The notes: generated by a model from the letters alone, not told the origin. A stretch of DNA of 63,685 nucleotides, filler included, from Octopus bimaculoides (GCF_001194135.2; 5 parts of 5 records of this genome joined end to end with filler, not necessarily neighbours in it), one strand, 5' to 3'; shown: positions 26,111 through 63,685, numbered from the whole stretch's first letter. Numbers and translations are program-made.

Positions 26111-26662
26111 TGTAGAATGATGTTATAAGTATTAGCAACACAGGAATATGTGGTTTAGTGCATTGGACATGTAAACATAAACTGTAATATTTAGTTTAAT
26201 GCATTGCACATTTAAACATAAAAAGTCAATTAATAAAGATCTGGTCCATTATGAGTGTGTTATGTCTTACTATGTATATATAATGTCTGTATGCCCTACT
26301 ATGGCAACAGTTGGTACAGGCAAACTTTTGACCTGAATAAAGCAACATATTTTCATGTATAAATGATATGTTCTCCTGTATAAAACACCTTAAATCCTGG
26401 CAAAGAAATCTTTTGTATATGTGCATCAGGCCGGTGCTAGAATGATTGCAGATTTTGTTACATATGCATATGAAAAGAAAAGTCAGCTATTGCTTTTGTA
26501 CCAAACTAGCTTTGTGTATGATGCATGCTCTGATTTTAAAATTTAAAAGCTGGGGGAAAATGCATGAATTAAACTTAAGAAAGCTCCAAAGTGGCTAAAA
26601 ACTAAAATATATATATATTATTTACAATTGACGGATATTTGTCTTCATCTTGTTTGTTGTTA

Positions 26663-26706
26663 ACACAACATTTCAGCTGATATATCCTCCAGCCTTCATC
26701 AGGGGT
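26663..26706 (-). ncRNA. Minimal type I hammerhead ribozyme motif (core intact, two CpG-type wobble changes)
   Basis: ACCC-CTGATGA-A-GGCTG(GAGGATATAT)CAGCT-GAAA-T-GTT-GTGT. Confidence 0.72.
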
Positions 26707-26991
26707 CTTGGGGGAAATTTTGAACCTGGATTCTCATTCCTAAGGTATTTTTTGATGTTGTTTAAACAATATTATTATTATTATTCTTATTATTTTTATT
26801 ATTATTATTATTCAGGTCACTGCCTGGAATTGAACTCGGAATCGTAGAGTTAGTAGTCTGCGCTCTTAACCACTAGGCCATATTCAGTGACCTGAATAAT
26901 AATAATAATAATAATAATATTAATAATAACAACAACAGCAACATCGAAAAATACCTTAGGAATGAGAACCCAGGTTCGAAATTTCCTCAAG

Positions 26992-27035
26992 ACACCTGAT
27001 GAAGGCTGGAGGGTATATCAGCCAAAACGTTGTGT
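26992..27035 (+). ncRNA. Minimal type I hammerhead ribozyme motif (G12A, probably inactive)
   Basis: ACAC-CTGATGA-A-GGCTG(GAGGGTATAT)CAGCC-AAAAC-GTT-GTGT. Stem I is ACAC:GTGT and stem III is the palindrome AACGTT. Confidence 0.72.
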
Positions 27036-27494
27036 TAACAACAAACAAGATGAGGACAAATATCCGTCAATTGTAAATAATGTACATAATTCCTCATCTA
27101 TAGAACTAAAATATATCTGTTGTAATTTCTGTGAATTTTTTTAGCTGATTTTTCTTCCAGTACTTACTATTATTTTGTAACAGTTTTGCAAAGTTTTTTA
27201 GTATTTTCATTCAAGTTGGTTGATGAACCTCAAATTACATTATTTACATGCCCTGCCTTACACTTAAAAAATAGCAAACCTACTTTTTATATTAAAAGAA
27301 AAAACTAATACTGATTTTATATTTACAAAAAAGAGCAAATACTGTCTTCATTACTTTATTCTCTGCATTCAGAATAATAATTATTATCTCATGTGTCTTT
27401 ATCCCTTTAATGGTAGTTTGGCAATAAATTTCTAACAAACTGAGCAACTGCATAGAGACGTTCTTGTTGGCTCATTGTTAATGTTTAGCCCTAA

Positions 27495-27865
27495 GTGGAG
27501 GCGCAATGGCCCAGTGGTTAGGGCAGCGGACTTGCAGTCATAGGATCGCGGTTTCGATTCCCAGACCGGGCGGTGTGAGTGTTTATTGAGCGAAAACACC
27601 TAAAGCTCCACGATGCTCTGGCAGGGGATGGTGGCAAACCCTGCTGTACTCTTTCATCACAACTTTCTATCATTCTTCCTTCCTGTTTCTGTTGTGCCTG
27701 TAATTCAAAGGGTCAGCCTTGTCACACTGTGTCACGCTGAATATCCCCGAGAACTACGTTAAGGGTACACTTGTCTGTGGAGTGCTCAGCCACTTGCATA
27801 TTAATTTCACGATCGGATCAACTGGAACCCTCGACGTCGTAAGCGATGGAGTGACAACAACAACA
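27495..27865 (+). mobile_element. Full-length tRNA-derived SINE with 15-bp TSD
   Basis: A box TGGCCCAGTGG, B box GGTTTCGATTCCC and (CAA)n tail. TSD AATGTTTAGCCCTAA at 27480-94 and 27866-80. Confidence 0.92.
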
Positions 27866-28633
27866 AATGTTTAGCCCTAAATCAGACCTAATTGTGGAGA
27901 TTTATAATTCAAAGATTTCAGAAAGCACTACCCTTTCCTCCAGATCAAACCAATAGCAAAATATATGAAAAAAAAAAAATTGCCTCAATAATATGTTGAC
28001 TGTCCTCCTTTAATCCATTCTGGCCTTTTTATTACATCTGTAACTGCTCTCTCATTGTTCTGAAAATTGTCAACAAATCTTTCTAGAATCTTTAGATGAC
28101 ATTGTTTTTAGTTCACCTCACAAGACTAAATATTGTTTTCAAATTTTGGTACAAGGCCAGCAATTTCGGAGGAGGGGTTAGGTCAATTACATTGTCCAGT
28201 ACTTATTTTATCGACCCTCAAAATTATAAAAGGCAGTTGACCTCAGCAAAATTTGAACTTGGAACATATAAAGATGGATGAAATACCGCTAAGTATTTTT
28301 CCCAGTGTGCTAATGATTCTACCAGCTTACTGCCTTAACAAGACTAAATATTTTGGACAAGCCAATAAGGAAACTTCTATGCACTTACTCATCATGCAAG
28401 AAAGAGGTGCTAATTCTCCTTTAAACTGCACACTAATGTTTGAAAAGAGGTTACTTACATCATTAAGTAATGTGGTTTCTGATGAGCATTACTTGAGGGT
28501 TAAAAATAAAAGGTACCTCAAAAACAAACAAAATCATGAAACTTGTCGGTCACAGCTTAAATGGTTTTGACCAGGACTGAATCATAGATTATTGATACGC
28601 GCGCGCGCACGCACACACACACACACATATATA

Positions 28634-29456
28634 CTAGGTTTGATCAATAAGTATCCGGACTGTTGCCATAGTAATGAAGCTAAAGTATACAGAGTGAAGC
28701 CACATGGCAAAGATTGACCTTTAACTCTGCTGTGCATTGCACACGCTGTTTACAGCAGTGCTTGGAAGGAAGGTGTGTAGCATGTGATCGTTGCATTGAC
28801 CATGACAGAGAAAGTTGTCATGCGATACCTACTCAGAGGCTGATGCGAAGTTGCAGAAAGTGTATGGAGAGGAGTGTATGAGCTGCACACAGGTGTACGA
28901 GTGGTTTAGACATTAACCAAAATGGCCAAATAAATGTTGATATTGATGAACGTTCTGGGAGACCTGCAACCAGCAGAACTGAGGAAAGCATCATAGATGT
29001 GCATGCAGCTAAAAGGGGAAAATCATATCACCATCCATGAGTTATCAGAGGATGTGCAGATTAGTTACAGTTCATTATCACTGAAGATTTGGGTATGAGA
29101 TGCATGTCTGCCAAGTTTGTGCCAAAACTGCTTTCAGCTCACCAAAAGAACACTCAGTGTTTCAGTTGCAAAAGATCTCCTTGATTGTGTCAAGAATGAT
29201 GAAAACTTTGCGTAGGCCTCTGAGCAGGTATTGCCAAGCTTTTGACAAAATTTGATACAGATTCTCTGCTCGGCTTTCTCTGTCATGGTCAATGCGATGA
29301 TCACATGCTACACATCTTCCTTCAAAGCACTGCTATAAACAGCAGAAGTGAGCTAGAATGTTAAAACTTAGTGCATATGCACAGCAGAGTTCAGGTTCAA
29401 TCTGTGCCAAGTGGCTTCACTTTGCATGCTTTAGCTTCGTTACTATGGCAACAGTC
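28634..29456. mobile_element. Mariner-derived fold-back element (5' end copied in inverted orientation onto the 3' end)
   Basis: The + strand encodes decayed mariner N-terminus (KLQKVYGEECMSCTQVYEWF, DERSGRP, AKFVPKLL, DLLDCVKNDENF). The minus arm 29204-29456 encodes MTEKAEQRICIKFCQKLGNTCSEAYAK from ATG 29286. TA lies at 28632-33. The right tip is lost where a SINE tail begins. Confidence 0.88.
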
Positions 29457-30371
29457 TACTTGACTGTGGCCATACTGGAGTACCACTTTAAAGAGTTTTT
29501 TAGTTAAACAAATTGACCCCAGGACTTATTCTTGTTTAGGCCTAGTGATTATTCTATTGGTTTCTTTTGCCGAACTGCCAAGTTATGGGAACCTAAACAC
29601 ACCAGGTTGTCAAGCAGAGGTGAGGAGACAGACAGACGTACACACACACACACACATGTATATATATATATATATATATATATATNNNNNNNNNNNNNNN
29701 NNNNNNNNNNNNNNNNNNNNNNNNNNNNNNNNNNNNNNNNNNNNNNNNNNNNNNNNNNNNNNNNNNNNNNNNNNNNNNNNNNNNNNNNNNNNNNNNNNNN
29801 NNNNNNNNNNNNNNNNNNNNNNNNNNNNNNNNNNNNNNNNNNNNNNNNNNNNNNNNNNNNNNNNNNNNNNNNNNNNNNNNNNNNNNNNNNNNNNNNNNNN
29901 NNNNNNNNNNNNNNNNNNNNNNNNNNNNNNNNNNNNNNNNNNNNNNNNNNNNNNNNNNNNNNNNNNNNNNNNNNNNNNNNNNNNNNNNNNNNNNNNNNNN
30001 NNNNNNNNNNNNNNNNNNNNNNNNNNNNNNNNNNNNNNNNNNNNNNNNNNNNNNNNNNNNNNNNNNNNNNNNNNNNNNNNNNNNNNNNNNNNNNNNNNNN
30101 NNNNNNNNNNNNNNNNNNNNNNNNNNNNNNNNNNNNNNNNNNNNNNNNNNNNNNNNNNNNNNNNNNNNNNNNNNNNNNNNNNNNNNNNNNNNNNNNNNNN
30201 NNNNNNNNNNNNNNNNNNNNNNNNNNNNNNNNNNNNNNNNAAAGAACACAAAATAACTGTGGTTATTTTAATAGCAAAGATCCCTATGGATCACACAGGT
30301 TGTAATCCTTTGAAACATATGTAGGAATAAAGTATGCAATTATAACATGCGTTTTCTCCAATCCTTAAATT

Positions 30372-30412
<41 letters not shown>

Positions 30413-30817
30413 TAAGAGAGAGAGAGAGAGAGAGAGAGTGTAACACACACATAAGCAAAGACTGAATTGTGCAACATATGTTGCCTATTTGTGAGGTTTT
30501 CAAGTAGAATGCATGCTTAAAAATGTTGCCTTCGTTATGATGCATCTTGCAAGTGTGTGTGTGTGTGGGAATTGAAATAGAATTGTATCAAAATCTTGTA
30601 CAAATAACTAAAGAAATACAAACACCAAGCTGTAGCAGCAACAATAACAGTAATGAAAGTAAAAGGCAGAGTGCGTTTACAATAACAGCAACGAATGCAG
30701 CAGCAAACTACAAAATAAAACTTCATAATACTGCATCAATATTTTACAGCTCTCTGATTTCAAATATGATATTTGGCACTGGCTGTGAAGTTTCTAAAGA
30801 GCCATCCTGATTTCATT

Positions 30818-30864
<47 letters not shown>

Positions 30865-30872
30865 AGAGAGAA

Positions 30873-30903
<31 letters not shown>

Positions 30904-31329
30904 TGGAGGGAGGGAGGGAGAGGGAGAGAGAAAGAGGTGTGGGGAGAGGATAATTTGAAATGCAGTAGCAGTGGGGTGCATAGTTGTTCCTGTCAGAATG
31001 TTACAGAAGGCTGCTGTTTCATGCACCTACCTGAGGAGCACTTAAAAAAGTTTGAATGGTAAGCAGTTTGTTTGACTGTTGTGCAGAGGAGTGATTGAAA
31101 AATTTCAGTTACTAAAAATAGTGATACTTTTAATATTTCTGAACTCCAGTTTGCCTGACAGGTGGGTAGGTGGGTAGGTTAGTAGACAGGTAGGCAGTTA
31201 GGTAGGTAAGTAGGTGGCTAGGTAGGTAGATAGGTAAATGTGCAGAAGTCTAAATTAATGTCTTGGAGCTCTCCCTTTGTCCAAACCCATGAATTCCATT
31301 GTGTAATTTTTGTCATTGCAGACTGAGGG

Positions 31330-31930
31330 CAGATTTGACTTGTTTGAAATAACAGCCAAATCTCCCTCAAATTGCACATCTCCACTTCACTATTTTAGAA
31401 GAGGACACATCAGGTAACATGGTCCTTTGTTCTCTGCTCATCTGGAATCCCCTTGGTTATAGGTCTGTTCAGTCAGGGCAGTCCTGGGGCTAAATAGCAA
31501 TAGCAACTAGTTTCCTTGGATGGATTGTTTAATACTGACTGACAGCCAACAATGGAGTCTCTGTATGGTCGTTTCACTTGCAAGAAATAGTAGCCAGATC
31601 ACCTTATCACCCTTCTTTAAAAAAAGGAAAAATGAATTCAAGACAAAAAAATGACTGGATGGTCACAACTGGAATGCTTTTGATGATCATGAGTCTGCTT
31701 GATCAAAGTTGTCTTGGGGCTAAACAACAACAGTAACTCCACAGCCATAGTGAATAAACAAAAATGAATCACTTAATCTGTTAGAAATAGCAGCTAAATC
31801 TCTCTTGAAAACCATTCTGTAATAGTTCTTCAAATATGAAGGAAACAAAGGATGGTGTAGTCTGAGATAAAGAATATCTGAGAAGATGGGATAGTCGTAG
31901 CTAGAATGTATTTTAATGATAGGGCTGACA
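31330..31930 (+). mobile_element. Three degenerate tandem copies of an abundant (CAA)n-tailed repeat family
   Basis: Recurrent GAAATAGCAGCCAAATCTCCCTCAAA...GATCAGGGCTGACCTGGGGCTAAACAACAAC modules. Related pieces at about 20780-21180, 33400-33850, 34500-34730, 37520-38040 and 51900-52200. Confidence 0.7.
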
Positions 31931-34900
31931 TGGAGGCAAACAACATCTGACAAATGAACAAAATGATAAATAAGAACAATGACAATAACTCAAATTCTTG
32001 TATTCATAATTGTTGTTTTTGTTTAGCCATGACCACCCTGTCTTATTCTGCAGACATAGTTGACAAAACACGGCTAAATTTTGGTCAAGAAGTTTACTTC
32101 ACAATTATTAGGTTCTGGACTCAATCCCATTGCATGGCGTCATTTGTGCAAGTGCTTTCCCCCATAGCTTCAGCTCAAACTAAGGCTTGTGAGTGAAATC
32201 AAATCGACAGAGACTGCAGAGAAGCCCATCAGATAGATTGTACCTGTAATTAAAAAATCCATCCTTGTCATGCACTATGACATTAATTCTGTTTTAGGAT
32301 TAACTACAGTATACACACACGTGTGTGTGTGTGTGTGTAATACTCTGCCACTTATATGCTAATGCAATGAGTTGGTAGATCAAACAACTCATTGAATTAG
32401 TTGTCAATCCAATGAGTTGTTTGATCTACCAACAACTCATGGATTTGTTGCTAGATCAACAATTCAGTGTCAAAACTGACAGAGATCTGTTTTACTTCAC
32501 TTTAGTATAAAGTGTCTAGGACTTCGTTGTGCAACATATGCTTCATTTCTTTCTCAAGACAATTAGGCATAATTTGAGAAAGATTTGGCTGCTATTTCTA
32601 ATAGTTTGAATGACTACACATATGGGCTTGTGTTTAACTCCAAGTTATTCCTGATTGAGTAAATATATGATTAAATGTGTTCTAAAGATGATCATTCTGT
32701 CCTTTCTTATATATCCAGGACCACATTGTGTAATGCACTCCTCTCTTCTCAGAATAGTAAGGTATAATTTGTGGGAATTTAGCTGATATTTGTAGCAAGT
32801 TAAGCAACCACTTAAAAGCTTCTGCTTTATATGTTATTTTATGTTGGTGTTGACCAACATAAATCTTGCATGTTATAATGAGCCTTGATTGAATAAACTC
32901 ATGATCAAATGCAGAGGTGTTTTTCAACTATGGCAGTCTTGTCTTTTTGTTTATGTGTTGTACACCTTGGACGACATTATCCAATGTGACCTTATTTGTT
33001 AGTAGCAATAAGGATGTAGTTTGAGTCAAAATTTTCTCATTTCCTTGACCCAAAGCAATGTTAGAGGATTGTAAGGGTTGAAAAGGAGTGGACAAATTGC
33101 CATGTTTAGTACAGTTAGCTTGTTTTTAAACTTTTTTCACTCAACCAGCACAATGACTGAGAAAGAAGAAATATTATATGGACGCAAATTATTTCCTTCT
33201 CATTAATAAAGTAGGGGAGGGGGACAAAAAATTTTTCTGCATATTGGGAGTGGTGGGGTCTGGTGTGGTATTTATCAGTTGAGAACCATTGACCTGCAGA
33301 GTAGTCAAGGTTGGCAGCTTAACTGGTAATAAATGTTGCTGAGTTAGATAAACTATTGCATATACCATGATTGTCACTGACACTTGTTAGGATGCCATTG
33401 ACAGGTGGTGGGTGGGCCAATGAATGGGTCTCTTTGTGGTTGTTTGATCAACTAGAAGTAGCAGCCAAATTTTTCTCAAATCACACCCTACCAGCTTAAA
33501 CACAGAAATAAATATTAGATAACATAGCCCTTACTATCCTAGGTATGTCACAAACCCTTGGACTCATAAGGCTGGAGCTTTAACCTCGTTTCCATGGGAT
33601 GCCAGTCTATCTATCATAGGGGTTAACTTCCCAACTATTGCTGGAACTCATTTACAGCTAGAGGTGAGTGAACTGAAACAATGTAAAATGGAGTGCTTTG
33701 CTCAAGAACATGACACACCGCTCAGTCTGGGAATCGAAACCATAATCTTGCAATCATTAGAGCAATTCCCTAATCACTTGGCCACACACCTTCACTTACT
33801 GTCTTACGTACCTTCAAAAAAGACAGGATAGGCATGACTAGAATACTTTAAACCAATGGTTCTCAACCTTTTTTTTACTATTTTACTCTGGTGGACTCCC
33901 CTCACCATTTGAAGTTTAATCCTTTAGCATTTGGATTATTCTATCAAATGTAATGCTTATTTATTCACATTGCTTTGAATTAATCATATATTATCTTGTT
34001 GCTTTGAGATTTCAATGATGTAGTTGTGTATTTTTAGAATGACATTTTAGAATAGGTGTGAGAGGCCTGATCTGGCCAGTTTGAACATAAAACAAAGAGA
34101 ATATTTTAGCTGGATATGGCCAGTTTAAATGCTAAAGAGTCAAAACCTGTTTTATATTCTTTCAAAATTCTTATTTTGGTTTTCACACATTCACTTTAGG
34201 CCTGTTTGATCAGGGCTGACTTGGGGTTAAATAACTGTAAGAATTGCCACAACTCTCTGCTATCTGTTTGGTCACTGGAGAGAAACATTATCATTACCAG
34301 TCTGGTCCTTAACATTGTCTAATCTAATCAGTAGGTTTCTCTATGAATTAACATATTTGCTTTCTTTTATCTCTAATTACCCTTCTTTCTATTCTTGTTC
34401 TCTTGTTCTGCTGTATTCCCATAAATGTTAGAATGCCATTCGGTGTTTAGTTACTGCTTCATGTTTCACCTTTCATACATTGCTCCAATGTCAATAAAAG
34501 CAGTACAACGAACGTGACAAAGAGACCTCTATGTGGTCGCTTGGGAACGGTAGAAATAGCAGCCAAAGCACTCCCAGCTGTTTTAAATACATAAATGAAT
34601 AAAGAGAAGACCACATTGGATAAACCTAGTTTTAGATTTCTGAAAAGACAGGATGATTCTGGCTGGAGTATCTTTGGCCATTGGTGGTCTGTTTGATAAG
34701 GACTAACCTAAGGCTTAAACTACAACAACAACAGAAACAGGAATTGCTACCAAAATATGTAGGAATTCACATGATTAGCTATTTTCCTTACTTGTGATTT
34801 GGTGGCCTTAAGCCAAGATCTAAATATTATTCTTACTGTTATTTACTTTCACCCAAATGACTTTAGCATTTTGATAAGAGCAGTAAATTTTAGAACTGTT

Positions 34901-38087: not shown

Positions 38088-38374
38088 GTTCAGTAGTTTT
38101 ATTTTTATAACGTGCTTTCACTTCACTACCGAGCGCAGCTCTGTGCGCCTTGGGTATGTGCTGTGGTTTGCTGTGGTGCTCTTATGTTTACTGTATTGAA
38201 AGTGTTTTGCGTAGAATGTGTGCAGTACTCAGTAGTGCAATTTTCTGTATGTTATATATATTTGTAAGTCCTGGTGTTTTTGTTATGTATTTGTCTGAAT
38301 ATTTTTTTATTATACCTAAGGCACCTACTATGATAGGAATTGTTTCTGTTTTTAGATTCCACATTCGAGTTATC

Positions 38375-38375
<1 letters not shown>
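38088..38375 (-). mobile_element. 5'-truncated R4/Dong-like LINE 3' end within a (TAA)n array
   Basis: ITRMWNLKTETIPIIVGALGIIKK...IQKIALLSTAHILRKTLSIQ*, plus ~100 nt 3' UTR. (TTA)n on both sides (38074-87, 38376-38423). Confidence 0.85.
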
Positions 38376-38424
<49 letters not shown>

Positions 38425-39317: not shown

Positions 39318-39902
39318 GGATCTTTTTTAAAACGGGGGCCACATTTTTCATTAACGAAACACTTTGAAACTTGGAACACTGGTAGAATGTGTCATATAAA
39401 ACATCTTTTTCTCTTAGTCTTCTTAAAAAAAAAAAGAAATCCATAAATTATTCCATGTTAAAGTTGTCGTATTTCTGTAATTTCAACCAATCACTGACGT
39501 CCATTCAGCCGATATACATTAAGCGCCGACTACATAAACAAACGATTCTGAAACAATTAACCCTAACCCTAACTCTAACCCTAACCCTAACCGTAGGGTT
39601 AGGGTTAGAGTTAGGGTTAGGGTTAGGGTTAAAGCAAATTTAAAATGAAAAAAGCAAATAAAACGAAGAATCGTTTGTTTATGTAGTTGGCACTTAATGT
39701 ATATCGGCTGAATGGACGTCAGTGATTGGTTGAAATTATCGAAATAAGACAATTTTTTACATGAAATAAATTCGAATACAAAAATATTTTTCTGTTCTAT
39801 AACACAAAATAGATAAGTATACGAAGTTTGAAAGTCTTTCGGTACCAAAAACACTACGTAAAACATTAATGAAAAATGTGGCCCCCGTTTTAAAAAAGAT
39901 CC
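39318..39902. mobile_element. 585-bp MITE with perfect 37-bp TIRs, 8-bp TSD, inner 72-bp inverted repeats and a central telomeric palindrome
   Basis: TIR GGATCTTTTTTAAAACGGGGGCCACATTTTTCATTAA (39318-54) and its exact reverse complement (39866-902). TSD CAGAAGTT at 39310-17 and 39903-10. Inner inverted repeats 39478-39549 and 39667-39738 (70/72). Confidence 0.92.
39558..39631. repeat. Interstitial telomere-like palindrome (CCCTAA)n-(TTAGGG)n
   Basis: About 6 units per arm. Each arm carries one variant unit (TAACTC / GAGTTA). Confidence 0.95.
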
Positions 39903-39913
39903 CAGAAGTTATA

Positions 39914-40032
39914 CAGAAATAAAAAAATAGAAGAGCGCCATAGTTATCATGTGAATTTGGTTGAACGATATTTCGGCATCATTCAACCAATTTCACATGA
40001 TAACTATGGTGCTCTTCTATTTTTTATTTCTG
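39914..40032. repeat. 52-bp-arm inverted repeat with 16-nt loop
   Basis: 39914-39965 pairs with 39982-40032, about 2 mismatches. Confidence 0.85.
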
Positions 40033-40083
<51 letters not shown>

Positions 40084-42120: not shown

Positions 42121-43238
42121 ATGGACAATGTTGTTAGTGATATACTAAAAAATATGGGATAGTCTACTCAATGAGGGCAGAAGTGAGGCTAAGTAGCAAC
42201 CTATTATGTGCTGCAAAATTCATTAGCCGGATGTCTAGCTCCTCTATTTCAGATACCAGGCATTTTATCTTTCAAAGCCACCATACTTTACAAGTGGTGG
42301 TGGTGATATTAGTGGAATACTGTTATTATTAAATGAATCAAATCACAGCTTTATCCTTCTGCACTGTTACATTTCCTTATTTGTTCCTATATCCTGTTTG
42401 GAAATTACTATTTGAAACACTCTCTGTGCACATGTGTGTGTGTATGTTCATTTTTAACAACACATGCTCACAGTAAGTAATATGCTTGGACGAGAATTCA
42501 TCATTTCTGATATAGGTAAAGATTCGCTGATGCTGTGAATAGCTATCTGGCAATTAAAAATACAGTATATGCAATTGAAGCAATATTTGATTAAAGTAGC
42601 CACCTATGTATCATACTTAATGTATACACAGTGTCGATTGGCCAGTTACTGCAGTATTTGTCCTGAGATAACATCTCTTATGGGCTTGCTATGTTAAAAC
42701 ATGAGAAATATCAGAGAGACGACAATTCGTCTCAGCAATCGCCAGCAAAAACATCAGATGTATTTCAGCTGTTTTGAGCCTTTTCAGTGGTGTGTACTTG
42801 CAGCCATCCACATGCTAGGACATGAATTCATCGTCTCTGATTTTGTAAAAAGTGAATAAAATATTCACTAAGTTTGTGCCTAGCCACCCAGCTGTTTGAA
42901 ACTTCGGTATATGATATTGAGGCAGTATTTAATTAAAATAACCATCTGTGCAGCATACTTAATATATACACTCTGTTGATAGGCTAGTTACTGCAATATT
43001 TGTCAATATTATTTGAATATTGAATATCAAGACTCTGTGTAGGAGTATTTGTACTCAATATTCCTGTCATGTGTAGACAACGCAACCCAGCTAAGTGAAG
43101 ATATCCGCTCTTGGTAATTCAGACATGTACTTTCTATTAATGTACTTTCTATAAATGTACTTTCTATTGTATTTCCAAAGTGCAGGTTCAAGTTAGGTGA
43201 ACAGAATACAAATAAGTAACAATGATGTATAGATGTCA

Positions 43239-43327
43239 ATTAATTACAGCCATTTCAAGCAAGTCCATTTAATTGATTAATGAAAACATTACATCAATTT
43301 GAAAGAAACCATTCTCATCAGATGAAT
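43239..43327 (-). ncRNA. Decayed type I hammerhead motif with a long stem II
   Basis: ATTCAT-CTGATGA-[hairpin including AATTGAT/ATCAATT and TAATG/CATTA]-GAAA-TGGCTGT-A-ATTAAT. Stem III is restorable to the palindrome ACGGCCGT by reversing two CpG-type changes. Confidence 0.55.
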
Positions 43328-43470
43328 GCATAGACTTCAAATATAAAGGATAAACCTTTTTTTAACAAATTTGTTAAAAAATTTGTTAAAAAGTGGTTTA
43401 TCGTTTATGTTTGATGTCTCTGCATTCATCTGATGAGAACGGTTTCTTTCAAATTGATGTAATGTTTTCA
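43281..43470. repeat. 190-bp palindrome (divergent inverted pair of the hammerhead-bearing element, cut by a gap)
   Basis: The ~76-bp arms differ at about 5 positions. The right arm has CTGATGA at 43430-36. Confidence 0.85.
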
Positions 43471-45884: not shown

Positions 45885-46307
45885 AGTAAAGATTATTTAC
45901 CAACATATTGTGGTTGTCCTGGTTAGGACGATTGTTACTGTTATTTAACCCCAGAAAACATCGTCTCCAGCTGGCTATACGACACACTATCTGCGCCTTT
46001 ATATTTTCGAACAAGGGAGTTTAGCGCACCCACTCAGCTCAAAGTAATATCTGCGTACCAATGGTTTCTGGATTATTTCCCTTCATCAGCAGAGAATAAC
46101 TGCTCGACTAGTGATGGTATCACTAAACTCTTATTCGAAATGTATACTTTTTAAAGTGACACACAGTCACTGATCTAATAAACAGAAAATTATTATTTCT
46201 AAATCTCTGAGACATTCAGTAACTGTACTCTAGAGCAAAGATTATTTGCCAACATAGTGTGGCAGTCCTGGTTAGGACGATTATTACTGTTATTTATCCC
46301 CAGGAAA
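45885..46307 (-). mobile_element. 349-bp unit with 74-bp terminal redundancy containing a hammerhead motif (retrozyme/PLE-like)
   Basis: Direct repeats at 45885-45958 and 46234-46307. Hammerhead motif at 46095-46050. Confidence 0.6.
46050..46095 (-). ncRNA. Type I hammerhead motif, catalytic core intact
   Basis: TCTCTG-CTGATGA-A-GGGA(AATAA)TCCA-GAAAC-CATTG-GTA-CGCAGA. Stem I pairs 5/6, stem III is ACC:GGT, and there is one mismatch at the base of stem II. Confidence 0.6.
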
Positions 46308-46716
46308 TATTAATAGGTAATGTATTACAAAATTGTTAAACTATTTTGTGAATTGTGAAAGTATAACCAATTTATTACGGATAAATCCTACCAGCGAAAT
46401 CTTATCTCCAAGGGCCATATGGACCCTGGATGAAAACCATTGAAGTAAAAAAAAAATAAACGATCAAGTTATTGAACGGTTCAAAATACATAGACATCTT
46501 TTCTGAGCAAGATGGTTAAGAAGGTGTGGACGTCTATTCTGTGAAACATTGGCTCCAGAAGAGGAGGCTGCATTGGACTGGCATAAACCCCTCATACCGT
46601 TTATTTCCATTACTCAATCCTATATGCTCTTTTAATCCTAAAAAGATATTTTCAGTGTTTAAGACAGGCGTTGACAAAAGAAATAAGGATGGCATAAGAA
46701 TGTCTTGAAATGTAGT

Positions 46717-50087: not shown

Positions 50088-51621
50088 TACGTCGAATGTG
50101 ATTTGAATTAGAAGTAGCTACTCTTTCTAGCAGCTCCTCATTGTTTATGATGGCGGGATATGATTGTCTTTTGTATTGCTTGCAAAAAATGGAGTCACCG
50201 GTTAATCGCCGTTGTTGTTGTAGTTGTTGTTGTAGTTTAGTCCTAGCCAACCAGTGGTGAAGCAAGAGTGTTGCCGCATGGCGCAGCCCTCTAGTTTGCA
50301 CCCCACTACTTCCGCACCCACCACCACTACCACCACTTCTGCCTCTATACAGGCTTGTATATCTAAAAATCTCGCCCCCATAAAAGCGTTGCCCGGGGNN
50401 NNNNNNNNGCTTATGCTACAGAAAGAAGCCAACTCAAATCCTGCTAACCTATAAACAAAAAATTCCAGTATGGTCTCTTCTCCCCACCGTCACTTTTAGC
50501 AATATTTAAGACTACAATATCTAATGTTGCTATCCCTTTATTTCAGGCGACGATGTTATAATTTCGAGCAATGGCTCTCAACCGAGGTCCATATGACTTT
50601 CGGGAGTCCTCGTAAGATATCATTGTTAAAACTTATCTGTAATAAATTGGTTATAATTCTATACGACACGAAATATTTTTTTAATTATTTTTTTCATACA
50701 TGCTGTGTGGTAAGTAGCTTGCTTACCAACCACATGGTTCCGGGTTCAGTCCCACTGCGGGGCACCTTGGGCAAGTGTCTTTTTGTTATTTCTTTTTCCC
50801 CACACATTCACTTTTCTTTTATTCTTTCACTTGTTTCAGTCACTTGACTGAGGCCATGCTGGAGCACCGCCTTTTTGTCGAACAAATCAACCCCCAAGAC
50901 TTATTATTTGTAAGCCTAGTACTATTTTCTATTTGGCGAACTGCTAAGTTACGGGTACGTAAACACACCATCAGTTGACAAGCAATGGTGAGGGAACAAA
51001 CACAGACACACAAATATATATATGTATATATATACATATATATGACGGGCTTCATTCAGTTTCCATCAATCAAATCCACTCACAAGACTTTGGTCGGCCC
51101 GAGTATATAATAAAGGTGTCACGCAGTGGCACTGAACCCGGAACCATGAGGCAGGGAGGCAAGCTTTTTACCACACAGCCACGCCGAACTTCCAGCAATT
51201 CGGCTTTGAAAACTATATTATTGTGCCAAATTTTAAAATTTTCGATAAACTTTGATTTTTGAAATGCTGGCAGCCAAACCAATTAGATCCCCTGCGCTTT
51301 GTGTAACTTTGCAACAACAGTCTTGGAGAGAACATGCTTCAGAAGCCAGAAACACGTTGAACTATGTAAAGCATTAGAGAAAGAAACCTAGTTGTTTCTT
51401 GCATAAAGATTTTTGTACGATTTACGATTTTTGTGTCTTGTTTAAAGCATAAAGATTTTTGTACGTCAATCGTTGCTAAGCTCCAGATTAGCCCTAATCG
51501 AGCAGAACTATGATCAATATGTTCCAGATATTTTTTTATTGACCTTTAAAATAATACTTCGTTTTTTTTTTTGTTTTTTTTTTGCAAGATTCTTTTTATG
51601 AATTCGTGTGTTGAAGCATAT

Positions 51622-51814
51622 TTTATTGTCAGGGGACAGTCTTTTTCTTTTAATGCCTTATTAATTTAACACATTCACCAGACTGATTTCCACTCGTTTA
51701 GTGCCTTGTTAATTTAATTAAAGTAAAAATAAATAAATGAGTGGAAATCAGACCGGTGAGTCTGTTAAATTAATAAGGCACTAAAAGAGAATGGCTCTCC
51801 CCAGACACAATAAA
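51622..51814. repeat. Palindromic MITE-like repeat
   Basis: Degenerate ~75-bp arms (GCCTTATTAATTTAACA / TGTTAAATTAATAAGGC; CTGATTTCCACTC / GAGTGGAAATCAG). Confidence 0.7.
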
Positions 51815-52221
51815 TTAATACTGTAAATACAAAATATACTATTTTATATGCTTTGATCCCCAAATTTTATATAAATCCCCAGGGGGTATTTGGACCCCAG
51901 TTCAGGACAAATTTGGTTGCTATTTCGAGCGACAACATAAAGCATCTTTTTGGATTTAGTAGGGAGTGTTCCTTAAGAGGATCAGTTCTTTTTCTTGTTG
52001 TTTAGAATCAGATAAGCCCCGACTGAAGCAACCCTTTCAAAGACGTTCCAACTGTGACCATCCCATTTTTTTCTTCACGCAACATTATTTAGGACCACTT
52101 TATCTTAATATGCTTTGCTATTTTTAAAGGCAATAGGAGTCTGTCTTAGCGGCATTTAACTGCTGTTTTAGGAGGTCGGACGACCGCATAGTGACTCCCT
52201 AGAATAGTAATAGCTTCAAGA

Positions 52222-56093: not shown

Positions 56094-56254
56094 CAATGGC
56101 GTAGCTAGTGTGTGTGTGCCGTTCGGTACAGCCCTCGAGTTTAACGGCAACACCGCCCCTTATACGGGTTTATACAGCTGACCCAAAAATGCCACCTCCT
56201 TAAAAACGTCTCCTGGTGTGGACTGCCCCTGTCGTCCCCCTAGCTACACAACTG
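56094..56254. mobile_element. Possible hAT-like MITE
   Basis: Ends CAATGGCGTAGCTAG / CTAGCTACACAACTG. No TSD recovered. Confidence 0.4.
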
Positions 56255-59200
56255 ATTGGGCTGGTAATTTATTTCTCGATCCTGACCGAATGAAATCAAT
56301 GTTGACCATGGTGGAATTTGAATTCAGAGAGCCAAGATCCGGATCAAAAACTGAGATATTTTATCCGACATTTTAACGGTCTTGCCAATTCGCTCCCTTA
56401 TTTGTATATCTGTAACTATTACTTTACATATGTCATTTCATTTTTAAGACGGTCAGATGTAATTTGAGGGATGTTTGACAGCTATTTCTGATAGGCCCAG
56501 CGACTGCGTACACGCTTGTTCGTTGACTGCTTCTGAAGAGGGGTCAAGCCCCAGGACAGGTAAAAATTGAAGTCTATTGAATTGTTGGGTAGGGGATGGT
56601 GGTTATGTTACTACAGTTGCTGTTGGTGGTGGTGGTGGTCGTGATGGTGGTGGTGGTGGTGGTCGTCGTGGTAGTGGTGGTTTGGTGGTGGTGGTGGTGG
56701 TGGTTTTGGTTCATCCTACTCAAGTAAACTAATGATCAAAAGCAGTCCAACGATGCCCATCACATTATATTTATGGTTATCTACGACTACATTTCTCATT
56801 ATGTTCTATCTGTTTCATGAAGGTAAGATTCGATTTGAAAAGGATTCGTTGCTATTTCTTGTAGGTCGAGCCACCACAAAGAGGCAACGTGTACGTGTGT
56901 ATGAGGGTATCTGTGTATGAGTGTGAGTGTGTCTGTGTGATTGTCATCTGCACATCTGTGCATGTGTGTGAGTGTATGTAAAGGTGTGTGTATGTGTGTC
57001 TGTGTGTCAGTGTGTGTTAAAGAAATGTCAATACAATCTATAATTATATAAATAATATCACAATTTTCCTGTCTGATGTCATCTAAGTTGAAATTCTCCT
57101 TTCGTTAGTGTGAAAGAGGACACAGTTACGAGTGAGTACGGGTGCGTACACACACCACATTCACACATCCATATGTATGCGCGCGCGCGTTTGTGTGCGA
57201 AAGAGAGAGAGAGAGAGAGTATGGTAAAAGAGAAAGCGGTGGGGAGAGTGAGGGCAAAAGAGGAGATGGTGAATGATTGTTCTATATTTGTGAATGAAGC
57301 TTCATTGAATTCTTACAGTTATGACTAATCGCCACTGACACTTGATATCGAAAACTAAATCCGTCTGACACCAGTATGTTCTCTCTCGTTCATTCATTCC
57401 TTTTAAGCTACTATTATTATATCTTTTGTGTTGGGACGACCTTGTGTCATATATATATATATATATATATATATATNNNNNNNNNNATGTATAGGTGCAT
57501 ATCTGGGTACAGGACATTGCAAACAAAACGTAGATATATATATACATTCATTTATTTATTTATTTATATACATATTTATTATATATGAGAGCTTATTAGT
57601 ACAGTTACATAGGCGACGAGCTGACTGAATTTTAAACATGCCGGACAAAATTCTCAGTGGCATTTCGTCCCAAATTCTGTCGAGGTCGATCTTGCATTTC
57701 ATCCTTTCGGGGACAATAAAACAAGTACGAAGATCTGGGGTGATACAATTGACTAACCCTCTCCCTCAAAAATCTCAAGCCTTCTGCCTTTGGTGGAAAT
57801 GATATTAGTACAGGTACAACACCCAGTTTCCGGATACTAATGGCCCAGAACCTCTTGTAAACCGAACTAATTTACACTAATGTACAGGTACTTGTATTTA
57901 ATTTAATCAATTAAGTTTAATATTTGTTTGATATTAAGAGTGTGTTGACCAAGGTGACCACCTCTGGTTTGAAAAAAATCAGTGCTAAAAGTTTCGGAAC
58001 GTCGGTGTTGTACCGGTGACTTGATCTCAAGACCAGTGGATAGCAGGAGGGATTTATATGTCTTTTATCTTACTGCGGTCGATAGAATAAATATTATTTA
58101 CGAAAATTGGGTTTCCGTGAGGTATAAGTGACCCAGATCACAACATTGCCCATCAACGGGACGCCAGCCTGTTGCTGGGCTCAAAGCCAGTAATTTTGAG
58201 GGGAAGGGAAAAGTAGATTACATCGACCCTAGTGCTAGATTAAAACTTTATTTTATCGACGACGAAAGGAGGGAAGCTGACTATGGCGGAATTTGAACTC
58301 AGAACGTAAAGAGACAAAAAATGTGCCACAAAACTTTTTTGGTCCGGCATAACGATTCCGCCAGTTCGACTCCTTTTTTGTAGTTCGAGATAAGACTAGA
58401 AAGACATGGAGAGCTGGCTGAATCGTTAGCACACCGGACAAAACGCTTAGCGGCATTTTGTCTGTATTTACTTTCAGAGTTCAAATTCCGCCGAGGTCGA
58501 CTTTGCCTTTCATCCTTTCGGAATCGATGAAATAAGTACCAGTGGATCACTGGGATTATTGGGGTCGATATAATCAGCTAACCTCCTCCCCCCGAGAATT
58601 GCTAGCCTTGTGCCTTGAAACCAATAAAAGACAAGCAAAATAGCCAAACCACGGCGAGAATGTTTTTGATCTTAAATCAGCGGGATCAGGTCTGACCCAC
58701 TTTGAAAGCGTCTCAGCAACAGCAATAACCATAATTAGTATTGTGTTGCTCCTCCCCCTCTAACACAGTAATACTTTCAATAAAACATATGTACCATAAT
58801 ACTTTTTACATCTCGTAACAGTCATACGTCAAACCCCTAATTGCTAATTAAGTCTATTTTTATCTTTACATTTAATGAGGTGTTTTGACATGATATATTA
58901 TCATTGCTGACGTCATACACAAGGCTAAATTAAAATTATAACCCAACGTAATAATTAAACAAGATGTTTCCAGTGCCTAAGTGTTAATTAACCAACATAA
59001 GTCCCTTAAGTGACACGAGATGATGTCCCATCTTGATCCCATATGGCAACTAGACGCATGCTTACAGTCACAGAACCGAACTTCATCTAAATCTCTCTGG
59101 AATTCGGCTGAATTAAACTTTACATTCCTCTTATCTGATAAGGAAGTACCAGTGATATCCTGAGGTTGACGGGAGTGCCAAGAGGTGAAATAAGTGTCAT

Positions 59201-59362
59201 CGAGGATATGTTTTCATTTTTCTGTTTAAGAAATAGAAAAAAGAAAGAAAGAAAAGGGGAAAGGAACGAACGAATAAAGGAAGGAAATAGGATAAAAAGA
59301 AAAAAAATGAATTTAGAAAGAAAGAAAAAATGGACAGAGAAGGAAAGAAAGAAAGGAAGGAA

Positions 59363-59396
<34 letters not shown>

Positions 59397-59534
59397 AGGA
59401 AGGAAGGAAGGAAGGAAGGAAGGAAGGGGAGGGAGGGAAGGAGGGAGGTAGGGAACGAGGAAGGGAGGAAAGAATGCATGTGTCTGCGTGTGTGTGTGTG
59501 TGAGTGTGTACGTGCGTGCGTGTATTTGCATATA

Positions 59535-59739
59535 CGAGGGAGTGCTGAAAAGCTCCTGGTTTTAAGGGTGTCGCGAAAGGCCTGGCTGGAGGCCCAACCT
59601 TCCGAGCTCTTTTACAGGGCTTAGAAAAGCTGAAGGGCCGCTGCAGTGAGTGTGTGACTCTGGGAGAGGAATATATTGTATAAAATCATATTGTATAAAC
59701 TGATCCTCCTGTATTTTCTTTTACCCAAAGCCAGGAACT
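59535..59739 (+). mobile_element. Mariner deletion derivative carrying the transposase C-terminus
   Basis: TA-CGAGGGAGTGCTGAAAAGCTCCTGG 5' TIR. Reads AWLEAQPSE / LQGLEKLKGRCSECVTLGEEYIV* (cf. RW.KCV...GEY). Partial 3' TIR AAAGCCAGGAACT. Confidence 0.8.
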
Positions 59740-61093
59740 CAGTTGAGTTCCAGATTATCTTTGCAATTTCGGCCGGTTATGCTCGAGATTGCTCCAGTCT
59801 GGCCAGCCCCAAGGACAAACTAAGTTAAAAGATCATGAGATTCCTTGGAAGAAAGCAGCGAATGTAGACGAAAACAAGGACGGCAAAAACGGAGAAAGTT
59901 ACACAAATACAAATGACAGGACATAACAACAGGTGTCTTTCGACTATACATACATACACATATATATATATATATATATACTCATATATTGTTTATATAT
60001 ATATATATATACATACGCGCACGTGAGTCGTCTAAGAGACCACAAGTCGAGAAAAAGATGCACTCGTATATCTGTCAGTTGAGTGGGTTTATTAGCCGAA
60101 ATGTATAGTATTAAATATCAATCACGGCTGGTCTTAACACTCCATTGTANNNNNNNNNNAGTGAAAAGCAGTAGATGAGTTGATCAGTAGTATGAATATT
60201 GGTTTCAAATTTTGACACAAGGCCAGCAATTTCCGGGGAGGGTGTAAGTCGATTACATCGACCTCAGTGCACGGCTGGTACTTATTTGTCGATTCCGGAA
60301 GGATGAAAGGCAAAGTCGACCTCGGCGGAATTTGAACTCAGAACGTAAAGACAGACGAAATGCCGCTAAGCATTTTGCTCGACATGCTAACGATTCTGCT
60401 AGCTCTTCGCCTTCGGTAATGTAAATATTGATATGCCAGATATATACTCTCTCTCTCTCTCTCTCTCTCTTTTACTCTTTTATTTGTTTCAGTCATTTGA
60501 CTGTGGCCATGCTGGAGCACCGCCTTTAGTCGAGTAAATCGACCCCAGGACATTCTTTGTAAGCCTAGTACTTATTCGATCGAACCGCTAAGTTTCGAGG
60601 ACGTAAACACACCAGCATCAATAGTCAAGCGATGTTGGGGGGGGGGGGCAAACACAGGCACACAAACATATGCACACACACATACATATACATATATACG
60701 ACGGGCTTCTTTCAGTTTCCGTCTACCAAATCCACTCACATGGCTTTGGTCGGCCCGAGGCTATAGTAGAAGACACTTGCCCAAGGTGCGACGCAGTGGG
60801 ACTGAACCCGGAACCATGTGGTTCGTAAGCAAGCTACTTACCACACCGCCACTCTTGACGTAGCGTGATGGCAGATTCGTTAGCACGCCGGGTGAAATGC
60901 TTAGCGGTATTTCGTCCGTCTTTACGTTCTGAGTTCAAATTCTGCCGAGGTCGACTTTGCCTTTCATCCTTTCGGGGTCGATAAATTAAGTAGCAGTTAC
61001 GCACTGGGGTCGATGTGCTCGACTATAACCTCTCCTTCAAATTCCAAGCTTTGTGCCTGTAGTGGAAATGAAGAAAGAAAGAATTGTATAATG

Positions 61094-61402
61094 CAGTGGT
61101 TCCCAAACGGGGCGATGCTGCTCCTCTGAGGGCGGTAGAAAGTTCCAAGTGGGGCGCTGAAGAAAACTGGGGTGATAATGAGGTAGCAATTCATGTAAAA
61201 AGTGGGACGATAATGAGGTGGCGATTCACGTAAAAACAACAAAATAATGGGTTCATTAGGTTAAGTTATATTTGTGAAATACAGTTGTTTTGAATTTGCT
61301 TCAGAAAGGTTTATGCTTGTGATGGTTAGTTGGGGTGAAGGCGGTAGGAACGTGGCCCGGGTGTCAAGGGGGCGGCAGCCCGTAAAAGTTTGCGAATCAC
61401 TA
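61094..61402. mobile_element. hAT-like MITE
   Basis: CAGTGGTTCCCAAAC ... GTTTGCGAATCACTA. TSD only partly conserved. Confidence 0.65.
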
Positions 61403-61733
61403 GTATACAATGCTTTTCTTGAATAACTTACATGACTGAGAATATACGACCCATGTGTATATATTCATTATACACGTTCACATGTGGTTACATGTATATG
61501 CCAGCCGTCAACCGCGAGCGGGTTCGGCTAAGAAACATGCAATATGCTTTGGTGAATTATGTTTTCTGTCTTATGTAGTCGGGAGCAGATACAGATATCG
61601 TCTCGACTCTCCCACATTTTGACCTAACGGCGCAATGCAAAGTGTGACAGGTGGAGACAGAAACAGTTGGTATTCATTTCCAGCTGAATGGAGATTTATT
61701 TGTAGATAGATGTATGCGTGCGTGTCTATAAAC

Positions 61734-61764
<31 letters not shown>

Positions 61765-62011
61765 TGTATGTATACACAAACACATACACACACACACACG
61801 TATGTATATGAATATATCATGACTCCATACGTATGTTTAAGGTTATATGTGTATTGGTATATATGTAGATGTACATATGTAAGTATGTATATGTACATAT
61901 ATATATATATANNNNNNNNNNNNNNNNNNNNNNNNNNNNNNNNNNNNNNNNNNNNTTAATTAATTAANNNNNNNNNNNNNNNNNNNNNNNNNNNNNNNNN
62001 NNNNNNNNNNN

Positions 62012-62046
<35 letters not shown>

Positions 62047-62049
<3 letters not shown>

Positions 62050-62411
62050 GTGAAACTAATAGAAATGAAACTATTAAAAGTGAAACAACATATATGCAAA
62101 CATACTGAAACTAATAAAAATGAAGCTATTAAAAGTGAAACTATTGAAAGTGAAATTACATAAAAGTGAAACTATTATATCACATTACAATAGAGATGTT
62201 ACTGTTTCACTTTTGGCATGTAATAGCAAAACAGTCTAAGAGATTGCTCTGAGCTCGCATTAGGCAAGAAGTTGAAAGTGTTTTGGGCCCATGACATTCC
62301 ATGGACCCTAATTAATGCATGTATAAAACTTCAATGAAATCGGTTGAGTAGTTCTTAAGTTTTAGAGATGCAGACAGACACACATACAATCTCAGTTTTA
62401 TATATACAGAT
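62047..62411 (+). mobile_element. Possible Helitron/HINE-like non-autonomous repeat with ~14-bp AAAGTGAAACTATT tandem units
   Basis: 3' end AATGAAATCGGTTGAGTAGTT...CAGACAGACACACATAC...TATATATACAGAT resembles DINE/HINE-type termini (recalled pattern, not searched). Confidence 0.4.
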
Positions 62412-62465
62412 GTAAATATGCTCATAGTATTATATATATACATACATATATATATATACATATAT

Positions 62466-62830
62466 AATAATAATTTTAGGGAATAAAATCCAAACTTACA
62501 GGGAAAAGTTCAATTTAGCAAAACTAAATCAGATTTCCCAATATAAAATATATGTATATAATTTAGAGAAAAACCACTATTAAAATGAAGAATATAATTC
62601 ACACCTTCCAGAAAATAAATATATCATAAACACTTTATTCTAAAAATACAATAAAGTACATAAAAAAATAACTAGTAAAAGGTATAAGAATGACTACGCA
62701 TGTTTTGTGGCTATATTTTCAAATAGTTAACTAATAAAACCAATTCGATTATTAATTCTATTAATAATCAAATCGATCTATAATTAAATCTATTCAAAAA
62801 TATAGTCACTCGTCAGGTCTAAATAAAATA
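62466..62830 (-). mobile_element. Inverted terminal-repeat (pLTR/3' UTR) portion of the Penelope-like element
   Basis: Directly abuts the + strand endonuclease fragment and carries a hammerhead on the minus strand. Assignment to the same element is inferred. Confidence 0.6.
62692..62820 (-). ncRNA. Minimal type I hammerhead motif with extended stem II (G12A)
   Basis: GAC-CTGACGA-GTGACTATATTTT...AAAATATAGCCAC-AAAAC-ATGC-GTA-GTC. Stem II pairs 12/13, stem I is GAC:GTC, and the A at 62706 sits at a CpG site. Confidence 0.7.
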
Positions 62831-62955
62831 AAAAGAATAATAATAAAAAGAAACAATTTACTATTGCAACTTACAATAAGAATCATATAAATATATAGAA
62901 AATACTTGTTTTAACAAATTAAGGTATTCCTTAGAGATAATAAATAATATAATAA

Positions 62956-63557
62956 CATTTTTCTAGTGAAAATTTTGGAGTTGGTTACTCTACTACTAAT
63001 AATGTTGGTAATATTACTTCTTCTTTTAATAAATTTAAGCTGAATAAATTTTACGAAAACAAGTCAAGTAATTATTCCAATAATAATAATACAAACCAGA
63101 ACATAATTAATTGTACATGTAGAGATAAAAATAAATGTAAATTTAACAATAACTGTAATTTGGAGGATGTAGTATATAAATGTTTAGTGACGTTGCTTGA
63201 TAATAATATGAATGGTTATAATTTAAATACTATTTACATAGGGTCGACTTCTAACAAAATTAAATTACGTGTGGCTCAACATATGAATTCTTTTAAAAAT
63301 AGAAATTTAATTAATTCTACTGGTCTTAGTAGATATATATATGGGAACTAAAATCTAAAAATATTATGTACAATTTACATTGGGAGATAGTTTGTAAGGC
63401 TAAATCTTATCGAATTGGTAGTGCTTTTTGTTTATTATGTACTAATGAATTTAAGGAGATATTATTAGCTGATAATAAAAAATTGATTAATTCCCTAGAT
63501 GAACAAAAAATTAAATGCAGACATAAGTTAAATTTCTTATATAATAAGTTTAGCTAA
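62956..63557 (+). pseudogene. Penelope-like element: linker plus GIY-YIG endonuclease with one +2 frameshift
   Basis: GYSTTNNVGNITSSFNK...NCTCRDKNKCKFNNNCNLEDVVYKC...YIGSTSNKIKLRVAQHMNSF...NSTGLSRYI/WELK...WEIV...Y...CLLC..E...LIN...CRHK. Removing one AT from the (AT)n near 63333-63342 restores the frame. Confidence 0.92.
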
Positions 63558-63685
63558 TTTATGTATTTATATAAACCCTATTTTATCTTGCTAATTGTTG
63601 TAGTTGTATTTTGTAGTAGTAGAATGTGTATAAAGTAGCATGAGATTATAAAGGATATATTACATATTTAGAATAAGATTAAACT

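Follow-up and report, generated by a model that had tools for sequence, protein, structure and literature searches.

A possible SINE with a tRNA-like head, Penelope-type ends and a minimal hammerhead ribozyme in Octopus bimaculoides

Introduction

Minimal type I hammerhead ribozymes (HHRs) in the pseudo-long terminal repeats (pseudo-LTRs) of Penelope-like elements (PLEs) are the closest described relatives of the motifs examined here, which lie in 63,685 nucleotides of Octopus bimaculoides DNA (GCF_001194135.2; five parts joined end to end with filler; hereafter the window). The main subject is one insertion in this window, locus A, in which a tRNA-like head is joined to an HHR-bearing body, and the repeat family to which it belongs (family A); six further HHR loci are named B to G. 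The pseudo-LTR HHRs resemble those of the window in an extra base between positions 9 and 10.1, a G10.1-C11.1 pair, a stem I of 4-5 bp, a palindromic stem III, the presence of many unrelated families per genome and the occurrence of opposite-strand pairs (PMC4209133). A 2014 study took such pairs, when separated by 100-700 bp, for probable truncated PLEs (PMC4209133). No tRNA-headed carrier is met in the available parts of that account, and the stem II regions of window loci E and F are much longer.

The Hydra clade of PLEs is marked by a C-terminal GIY-YIG endonuclease without CCHH, a CxCx5C linker, and CxxC and CxH motifs (PMC8557442). Its members are comparable to window elements in their (TA)n target, their 3′ HHR with palindromic stem III and, in Penelope-13_HM, an inverted HHR-bearing 5′ copy (PMC8557442). 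The published octopus member, Hydra-1_Obim (PMC8557442), differs by eye from both the HHRs and the endonuclease of the window, the latter being a dead copy that lacks a reverse transcriptase (RT). Non-autonomous PLEs have been reported in Chlamydomonas and Heliconius, and PLEs have been proposed as the mobilisers of animal retrozymes (PMC7229834, PMC7761336). The idea of non-coding HHR elements mobilised by PLEs is not new; in Xenopus, the tie between PLEs and retrozymes is backed by homology in a 2026 preprint (Li, Clavereau and Pollet, 10.64898/2026.07.22.740005). Animal non-LTR retrozymes are non-coding HHR units of 170-400 nt, proposed to be non-autonomous PLE derivatives and commonly found as solo monomers, and loci B, D, F and G fit this description by size. 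In contrast to retrozymes, the window holds no tandem of two HHRs, and whereas retrozymes seem promoterless in the available account (PMC7761336), A has a tRNA-like head.

Three other systems approach family A from different sides. Sm-alpha and Sj-alpha of Schistosoma share with A a tRNA-derived head, a hammerhead, short length and very high abundance (PMC2770079); A, which is set apart from Sm-alpha by description only, differs in its PLE-type minimal HHR near the 3′ end, its one-sided tail, its inverted arms and its 5′ palindrome, and schistosome HHRs of the Sm-alpha kind are described as canonical (PMC4209133). In the Anolis Poseidon PLE, PAc, reverse transcription starts at two internal sites, giving an optional tail of 30-40 nt that is called unique to PLEs; PAc prefers AT-rich targets and uses uncut RNA as template, RNA-seq ends are absent at its HHR site, and its HHR cuts solely with protein, cleavage not being required for insertion in vitro (PMC11167929). 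PAc is autonomous and protein-coding whereas A is non-coding; the optional tail, AT-rich surroundings and the lack of RNA-seq ends at the HHR site are common to both. Finally, the abundant octopus tRNA-derived short interspersed elements (SINEs) of Ohshima and Okada 1994, of which OR1 and OR2 are cited as CORE-SINEs, are like A in abundance, host and kinship with tRNA, and A may already be named among them or in repeat libraries.

[quoted passage not shown] No description of a tRNA-headed SINE mobilised by a PLE, or with PLE-type ends, was found in the literature searched, although such a family may be catalogued under another name, and no account of hammerheads in octopus SINEs was found in the same literature, a search with most subscription papers, Repbase and the O. 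vulgaris consensus set outside its scope. We tentatively propose, with rather less than even confidence, that family A is a true RNA polymerase III (Pol III) SINE with tens of thousands of copies distributed over the octopods, and that it would be partnered by a PLE and not by a long interspersed element (LINE). The 3′ part of A would be a PLE pseudo-LTR with HHR and tail, and its 5′ palindrome would let the cDNA prime its own second strand.

Results

Anatomy of locus A

Locus A is a single insertion (26613-27103) flanked by a 13-bp duplication (Table 1), and it forms an inverted duplication (26610-27088) of 81% identity. The minus arm reads, in order, head, (AAT)n, about 60 nt, HHR and about 55 nt, and the cut of its HHR is predicted between 26667 and 26666. 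The plus arm opens in the last bases of the head, the rest of which is absent, and ends with 15 nt of tail. In the head, motifs resembling box A and box B were called by the general box consensus, and neither arm contains a run of four T. The plus arm has likely lost about 75 nt at its centre, as an intact head-to-head palindrome in other copies makes the window junction more likely a later deletion; on the same ground, a tRNA acceptor stem was rejected as primer of the inversion. In both ribozyme cores and in stem III, the damaged positions are CpG sites, which fits neutral decay.

The family thus combines two sets of marks. Those of a tRNA-derived SINE are the box A/B-like motifs at the 5′ end, the lack of an internal terminator, the non-coding sequence and the high copy number; those of a non-autonomous PLE are the inverted 5′ copy and a one-sided tail, about 30 nt long in reads. 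The tRNA-like head is present, and further copies also have it connected with the HHR-bearing body. The HHR itself is likely a PLE-derived recognition structure, which would need a second HHR in a dimer, or the help of a protein, to cut.

An ordinary SINE moved by a LINE such as Dong-R4 or RTE, with the hammerhead carried as cargo, would also account for parts of this anatomy: the 13-bp duplication and the (AAT)n tract would in general be compatible with LINE-type insertion as well, O. vulgaris has both Dong-R4 and RTE in abundance and with recent activity, and Sm-alpha provides the example of a tRNA-derived SINE with an HHR (PMC2770079). However, the 3′ end of A has no poly(A), simple-repeat or LINE-derived tail and is PLE-like, the HHR about 55 nt from that end is of the PLE minimal type, and the one-sided tail and inverted 5′ copy are PLE signatures, so that partnership with a LINE appears quite improbable.

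Family A in sequencing reads

Between 0.66 and 0.80 of the words of locus A were found in 14 runs under four organism labels; two insect-metagenome runs, at a share of 0.04, were given no weight. Reads were aligned to 26540-26900 at 80% likeness in 4 of the 24 runs listed, including two DNA runs (contigs) and one RNA run, and came from three organisms (A, B and C), in all of which both boxes are kept. The figures hold among the rows listed, beyond which lay 38 variant rows, 18 joints and 630 loose ends. Summed depth relative to the flank, which is not a copy number, was 37,000-79,000x over the HHR and 2,300-9,500x over the head; family A is thus very abundant, and the head less so. The exact pattern of A's HHR gave no match in metagenome, genome and viral contigs.

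Each window arm of A, taken singly, has an HHR defect, but by the majority letters of the DNA runs stem I is restored at 99%, the pair that closes stem II at 62-64% and the palindrome of stem III at 69-74%, and G12 is lost in 6-7%. The family majority has the core boxes, the extra base before stem II, G10.1-C11.1, the palindromic 15.2-16.2 and the stem I of 4-5 bp that characterise the minimal PLE-type HHR. Among the rows listed, changes within the HHR are CpG-type and single-site, compensatory pairs being unreadable from per-site tables.

Loose ends behind the head carry the same 10-11 letters in all four runs, completing a palindrome, and then diverge (agreement 0.47-0.71), which indicates that the head marks the 5′ end of family A. 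The palindrome begins 13 nt before box A, and a start at this distance is a usual SINE spacing; in 299 RNA reads the palindrome is followed by an inverted head. The palindrome's spacer varies only through CpG decay and was therefore likely templated. At the other end, an extension of about 30 nt is present in 1128 RNA reads; the plus arm of locus A retains part of it, partly deleted, and the minus arm none. Head and body are linked across deletions in four contigs, and the head is joined to the tail in one, among the joints listed.

Transcripts and competing readings of family A

The raw RNA set comprises 7147 aligned reads pooled from up to four studies, and the library, which seems unstranded, is poorly suited to tests of start or cleavage sites. 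Within that limit, several results weigh against a Pol III SINE partnered with a PLE. No pile-up of read starts or ends occurs anywhere in the RNA run, the HHR cleavage site included, which is a weak test, and RNA mates are equal on both strands, which would suit passive read-through no less than it would a discrete RNA. Neither ARAGORN nor Rfam returned a tRNA match for the head; the DNA depth of the head is several-fold to more than 10-fold under that of the body, so many bodies may be headless; and (AAT)n is spanned by just about 7 RNA reads among the rows listed. In the DNA contigs, the majority of 3′ loose ends enter varied AT-rich flanks and not the tail. Moreover, no autonomous PLE with A's tail was found in the window, among 46 non-octopus Hydra-type loci (described below) or, by eye, at the 3′ end of Hydra-1_Obim.

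The low head depth and the read-through character of the RNA would suit a reading in which every HHR piece, the body of A among them, is the pseudo-LTR left at the 3′ end of a truncated full PLE, the head being a passenger that was fused once and spread by read-through with no role for Pol III; Cervera and de la Pena likewise read most single and opposite-strand minimal HHRs as truncated PLE ends (PMC4209133). Against it, nothing beyond the palindrome is common upstream of the head, the boxes persist in three organisms, the arms are free of four-T runs, and no PLE coding remnant adjoins locus A within the window. A passenger head is accordingly regarded as unlikely, whereas mobilisation of the tRNA-headed family A by a PLE is considered probable.

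The preliminary description had also envisaged small ribozyme-processed RNAs, and a related reading makes the window elements functional retrozymes, cut and circularised to small RNAs within one system that includes the neighbouring PLE. Loci B and D exceed one unit, as would be expected from a circular or tandem template, and circular retrozyme RNAs have been demonstrated in coral, mussel and axolotl. Yet each unit has one HHR, mostly damaged, there are no common tails, the PLE copy is dead, and 8 of 9 Xenopus dimers remained uncut in vitro (10.64898/2026.07.22.740005). Family A for its part lacks both cleavage ends and, among the rows listed in the RNA run, go-back joints (again a weak test). 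Ribozyme-processed RNAs are thus unsupported, and functional retrozymes are very improbable here.

Separately, eight A>G or T>C changes were observed within 26636-26747, at 11-17% in RNA versus at most 1.3% in DNA contigs and on both strands. These changes may possibly represent A-to-I editing of double-stranded RNA of family A. However, a T>A change stands at 15% in RNA, and RNA and DNA are unmatched, so a few highly expressed copies could also explain the edit-like changes, whose presence on both strands suits passive read-through and a discrete RNA alike.

Hammerhead motifs across the window

The window is AT-rich (GC 37%), with many microsatellites and assembly gaps. HHR cores occupy all six of the places named in the preliminary description, as borne out by descriptor search: 26702 (minus arm of A, stem I to 26662), 26996 (plus arm of A), 42787 (decayed, B), 43321 to 43239 (C), 46089 to 46050 (D) and 62816 to 62692 (E), all on the minus strand except 26996. 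With a descriptor in which both core boxes are whole, an extra base precedes stem II and at most one mismatch per stem is allowed, five intact-core HHRs were found (A-minus, C, D, F and G), as against 0.60 +/- 0.73 (maximum 3) in 40 local dinucleotide shuffles of the window; at scores of at least 12 the contrast was 5 versus 0.15. Permitting CpG-type core decay brought in A-plus, E, B and two weak matches, for 10 versus 5.4 in shuffles, or 8 versus 1.3 at scores of at least 12. The descriptors were composed after the motifs were seen, which biases all of these counts upward. Two of the intact-core motifs, F at 16787 on the minus strand and G at 24648 on the plus strand, lie beyond the earlier set. 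Three weak candidates (682, 28479 and 13990) were set aside.

The excess over shuffled sequence anticipated in the preliminary description therefore holds, but its wording of "five clear" type I HHRs was too strong. The motifs are present; however, G12 has changed to A in A-plus (26996) and E (62816), stem II of C closes with just 2 contiguous pairs and stem I of D has one mismatch, in addition to the G8 to A change in B, and a strict descriptor with no room for an added base ahead of stem II gave 0 matches in the window. Chance matches in AT-rich repeats might nevertheless be suspected, as Rfam gave no hammerhead at E<=1 across the window, nor at E<=10 in locus A, the loosest descriptor gives 5.4 matches per shuffle, and C and B are individually weak. 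The contrast at the higher score and the restoration of the A structure by the family majority oppose this explanation, which is already refuted for A and has a negligible probability overall: the HHR motifs are genuine and above chance. Minimum-energy folds of single motifs were mostly not hammerheads, as is expected for minimal HHRs, and were given no weight.

Relationships among the loci

When nine element sequences were compared, matches were restricted to the A arms with each other and to C versus F over 45 nt (73%, E=0.002); other pairs were no better than E=0.078. The stem III sequences of E and F are nearly identical, but no 3′ tail is shared among the nine. In O. vulgaris, 190 families of PLEs together make up 6.83% of the genome (PMC13282606), a share that corresponds to about 3.9 kb of the window's 57 kb, so that seven loci with an HHR, together with two endonuclease remnants, represent background and not a cluster. 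The single window-wide Penelope/hammerhead system of the preliminary description thus gives way to separate decayed insertions with no shared tail and a dead endonuclease copy. Its link to PLEs survives in the Hydra-clade endonuclease, the PLE-type HHR anatomy and the PLE-type ends of A. The HHRs of the window quite likely lie in seven separate insertions with eight arms in all, most of them decayed and each made by PLE enzymes, with A as a tRNA-headed SINE borrowing them.

Locus E and the endonuclease remnants

At locus E, the stretch 62956-63557 is the C-terminal part of a PLE protein, and the part upstream of 62956 was assigned by eye alone. The Pfam GIY-YIG match is weak (E=0.013); however, the endonuclease aligns to the C-terminus of RT-endonuclease proteins, and it has the CxCx5C linker and the CxxC and CxH motifs around conserved E and N, without CCHH and with no cysteine pair between the two motifs. 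HMMER returned 377 relatives, several of them of 700-780 aa with RT and endonuclease, where a word-based search had found no longer homologues; in four long relatives the RT motifs read RWK/RWR and DKT/DKS, RWK and DKT being those of the Hydra clade. On its sequence, E is classed as a 5′-truncated, frameshifted pseudogene of a Hydra-clade PLE and, by eye, appears to represent a family separate from Hydra-1_Obim. What had been taken for a GIY-YIG Penelope open reading frame is consequently a PLE endonuclease of the Hydra clade but not an open frame, and since it lacks RT this copy could not mobilise anything.

Forty-six Hydra-type loci were obtained from metagenomes with one protein, of which 14 were excluded because the match fell short of the endonuclease end and 10 because less than 300 nt of room followed it. 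A same-strand HHR stands 114-271 nt behind the endonuclease in 17 of the 22 with at least 300 nt of room, which are not independent, many coming from few samples and one family. The window stops 128 nt past the stop codon of E, whose own same-strand HHR thus likely lies just outside. None of the 46 loci gave an informative DNA match to window elements. Two HHR motifs (L003:136 and L003:311) stand upstream of a Hydra-type coding region in one of them, as fits a 5′ pseudo-LTR.

The minus-strand HHR of E has a stem II base as in several Hydra HHRs and is followed by (TA)n. By analogy, the minus piece is likely an inverted 5′ copy of E's PLE, and E as a whole is likely a 5′-truncated Hydra PLE with such a copy. 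Insertion into (TA)n is indicated at E, where the minus piece, which would belong to the same element, ends in (TA)n, and at F, which lies between two (TA)n runs. Three inverted duplications had been described in the window, and A and C are of this kind; E is divergent but without duplicated sequence inside the window, where the sole inverted match is the long stem II of the HHR itself. A second, more decayed Hydra-type endonuclease remnant (14590-14014) lies beyond the set described earlier. At about 13990, after this remnant, half an HHR core is cut off by a (CA)n run.

Other hammerhead loci

The terminally redundant units of about 330-350 bp in the preliminary description were confirmed, with periods of 342 for B and 349 for D; D also has a possible 8-bp target-site duplication. 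Loci B, D, F and G each have one HHR in 1.0-1.3 units, and no tandem with at least 2 complete HHRs was met among them; with 1.2-1.3 units and one HHR, B and D cannot release a monomer themselves. The plus (right) arm of C is cut off by an assembly gap. For B, C, D, F and G, a non-autonomous family and the truncated 3′ end of a full PLE both fit the window data.

Table 1. Coordinates of the features of locus A, of the further hammerhead loci and of the endonuclease remnants in the window.
Feature	Coordinates	Strand	Details
13-bp target-site duplication, left copy	26600..26612		exact repeat of 27104-27116
Locus A, full arm	26613..26883	-	tRNA-like head, then (AAT)n and a body carrying the minimal HHR; no tail at 3′ end
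Minimal type I HHR of locus A	26662..26707	-	core 26702, extra A ahead of 5-bp stem II
tRNA-like head	26813..26883	-	box A-like 26880-26870, box B-like 26837-26826
Locus A, inverted arm	26885..27103	+	HHR 26991-27036 with G12 to A; partial tail 27089-27103
13-bp target-site duplication, right copy	27104..27116		exact repeat of left copy
Locus B, 342-bp unit and 109-bp terminal repeat (80%)	42554..43004	-	decayed HHR 42793-42751, G8 to A
Locus C, fold-back 43281-43470 (92%)	43238..43470	-	HHR-like motif 43329-43239 on minus arm, weak stem II
Locus D, 349-bp unit and 77-bp terminal repeat (88%)	45885..46310	-	HHR 46095-46050, palindromic stem III
Locus E, minus piece	62467..62830	-	Hydra-type HHR 62819-62692, 103 nt between core boxes, G12 to A; ends in (TA)n
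PLE endonuclease region of locus E, dead	62835..63557	+	CxCx5C, GIY-YIG-like, CxxC, CxH; frameshift near 63340; no RT
Second Hydra-type endonuclease remnant, more decayed	14014..14590	-	tblastn E=7e-7, 19 matches from 150 query proteins
Locus F, 330-bp unit flanked by two (TA)n runs	16572..16900	-	intact-core HHR at 16787
Locus G, insertion of about 240 bp	24555..24794	+	HHR at 24648; inside other repeat, uninterrupted copy 13697-13485

Other features of the window

A different tRNA-headed SINE-like repeat was recognised by eye at 27495-27865, 400 bp from locus A, and inverted ends (28658-28814 and 29274-29456, 78%) around a decayed frame at 28660-29460 suggest a DNA transposon relic. The fold-back at 39445-39772, the centre of which has six TAACCC facing six TAGGGT units (telomere-like), adjoins another at 39913-40033. 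Non-microsatellite fold-backs without an HHR match also occur at 51619-51817, 21940-22182 and 32371-32433, where Rfam miRNA matches were below threshold. A 477-aa open frame at 2212-3645 (minus strand) contains 22-aa repeats (66-bp period), enters an assembly gap and has no Pfam match. Short minus-strand frames at 1-130 and 38188-38400 presumably resemble the C-terminus of a LINE with a restriction-like endonuclease; 38191-38400 has no Pfam match.

Discussion

In the life cycle proposed for family A, Pol III would start about 13 nt before box A, at the short palindrome, and read through A into the flank. The PLE protein would bind the uncut A RNA at its HHR-bearing 3′ part and nick AT-rich DNA, after which reverse transcription from either of two internal sites about 30 nt apart would yield copies with or without the tail; both end types are observed, and the enzyme is modelled on the Anolis PLE. 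Internal initiation by a PLE RT would trim a flank-reading SINE transcript precisely, which would make the pairing of the two mechanistically sensible. The palindromic 3′ end of the cDNA would then fold back and prime the second strand, giving head-to-head inverted arms of varied length. The palindrome and the arms are observed, and self-priming at the 5′ palindrome would explain the latter; granted mobilisation of A by a PLE, we lean moderately towards such fold-back priming. The unit would be sealed with the 13-bp duplication observed at locus A, and CpG decay would later have damaged both ribozymes of the window copy.

The window-wide picture adds little, as decayed PLE pieces with HHRs are to be expected here. 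Family A would be of wider interest: SINEs are normally partnered with LINEs, and a family partnered with a PLE would matter to mobile-element specialists. If the proposal is true, A would be a minimal natural substrate for the origin of PLE 5′ inversions and for the purpose of the hammerhead. With an abundant substrate of about 300 nt, the role of the minimal HHR, conserved yet dispensable for insertion in vitro, would become testable, and inverted A pairs may also supply edited double-stranded RNA.

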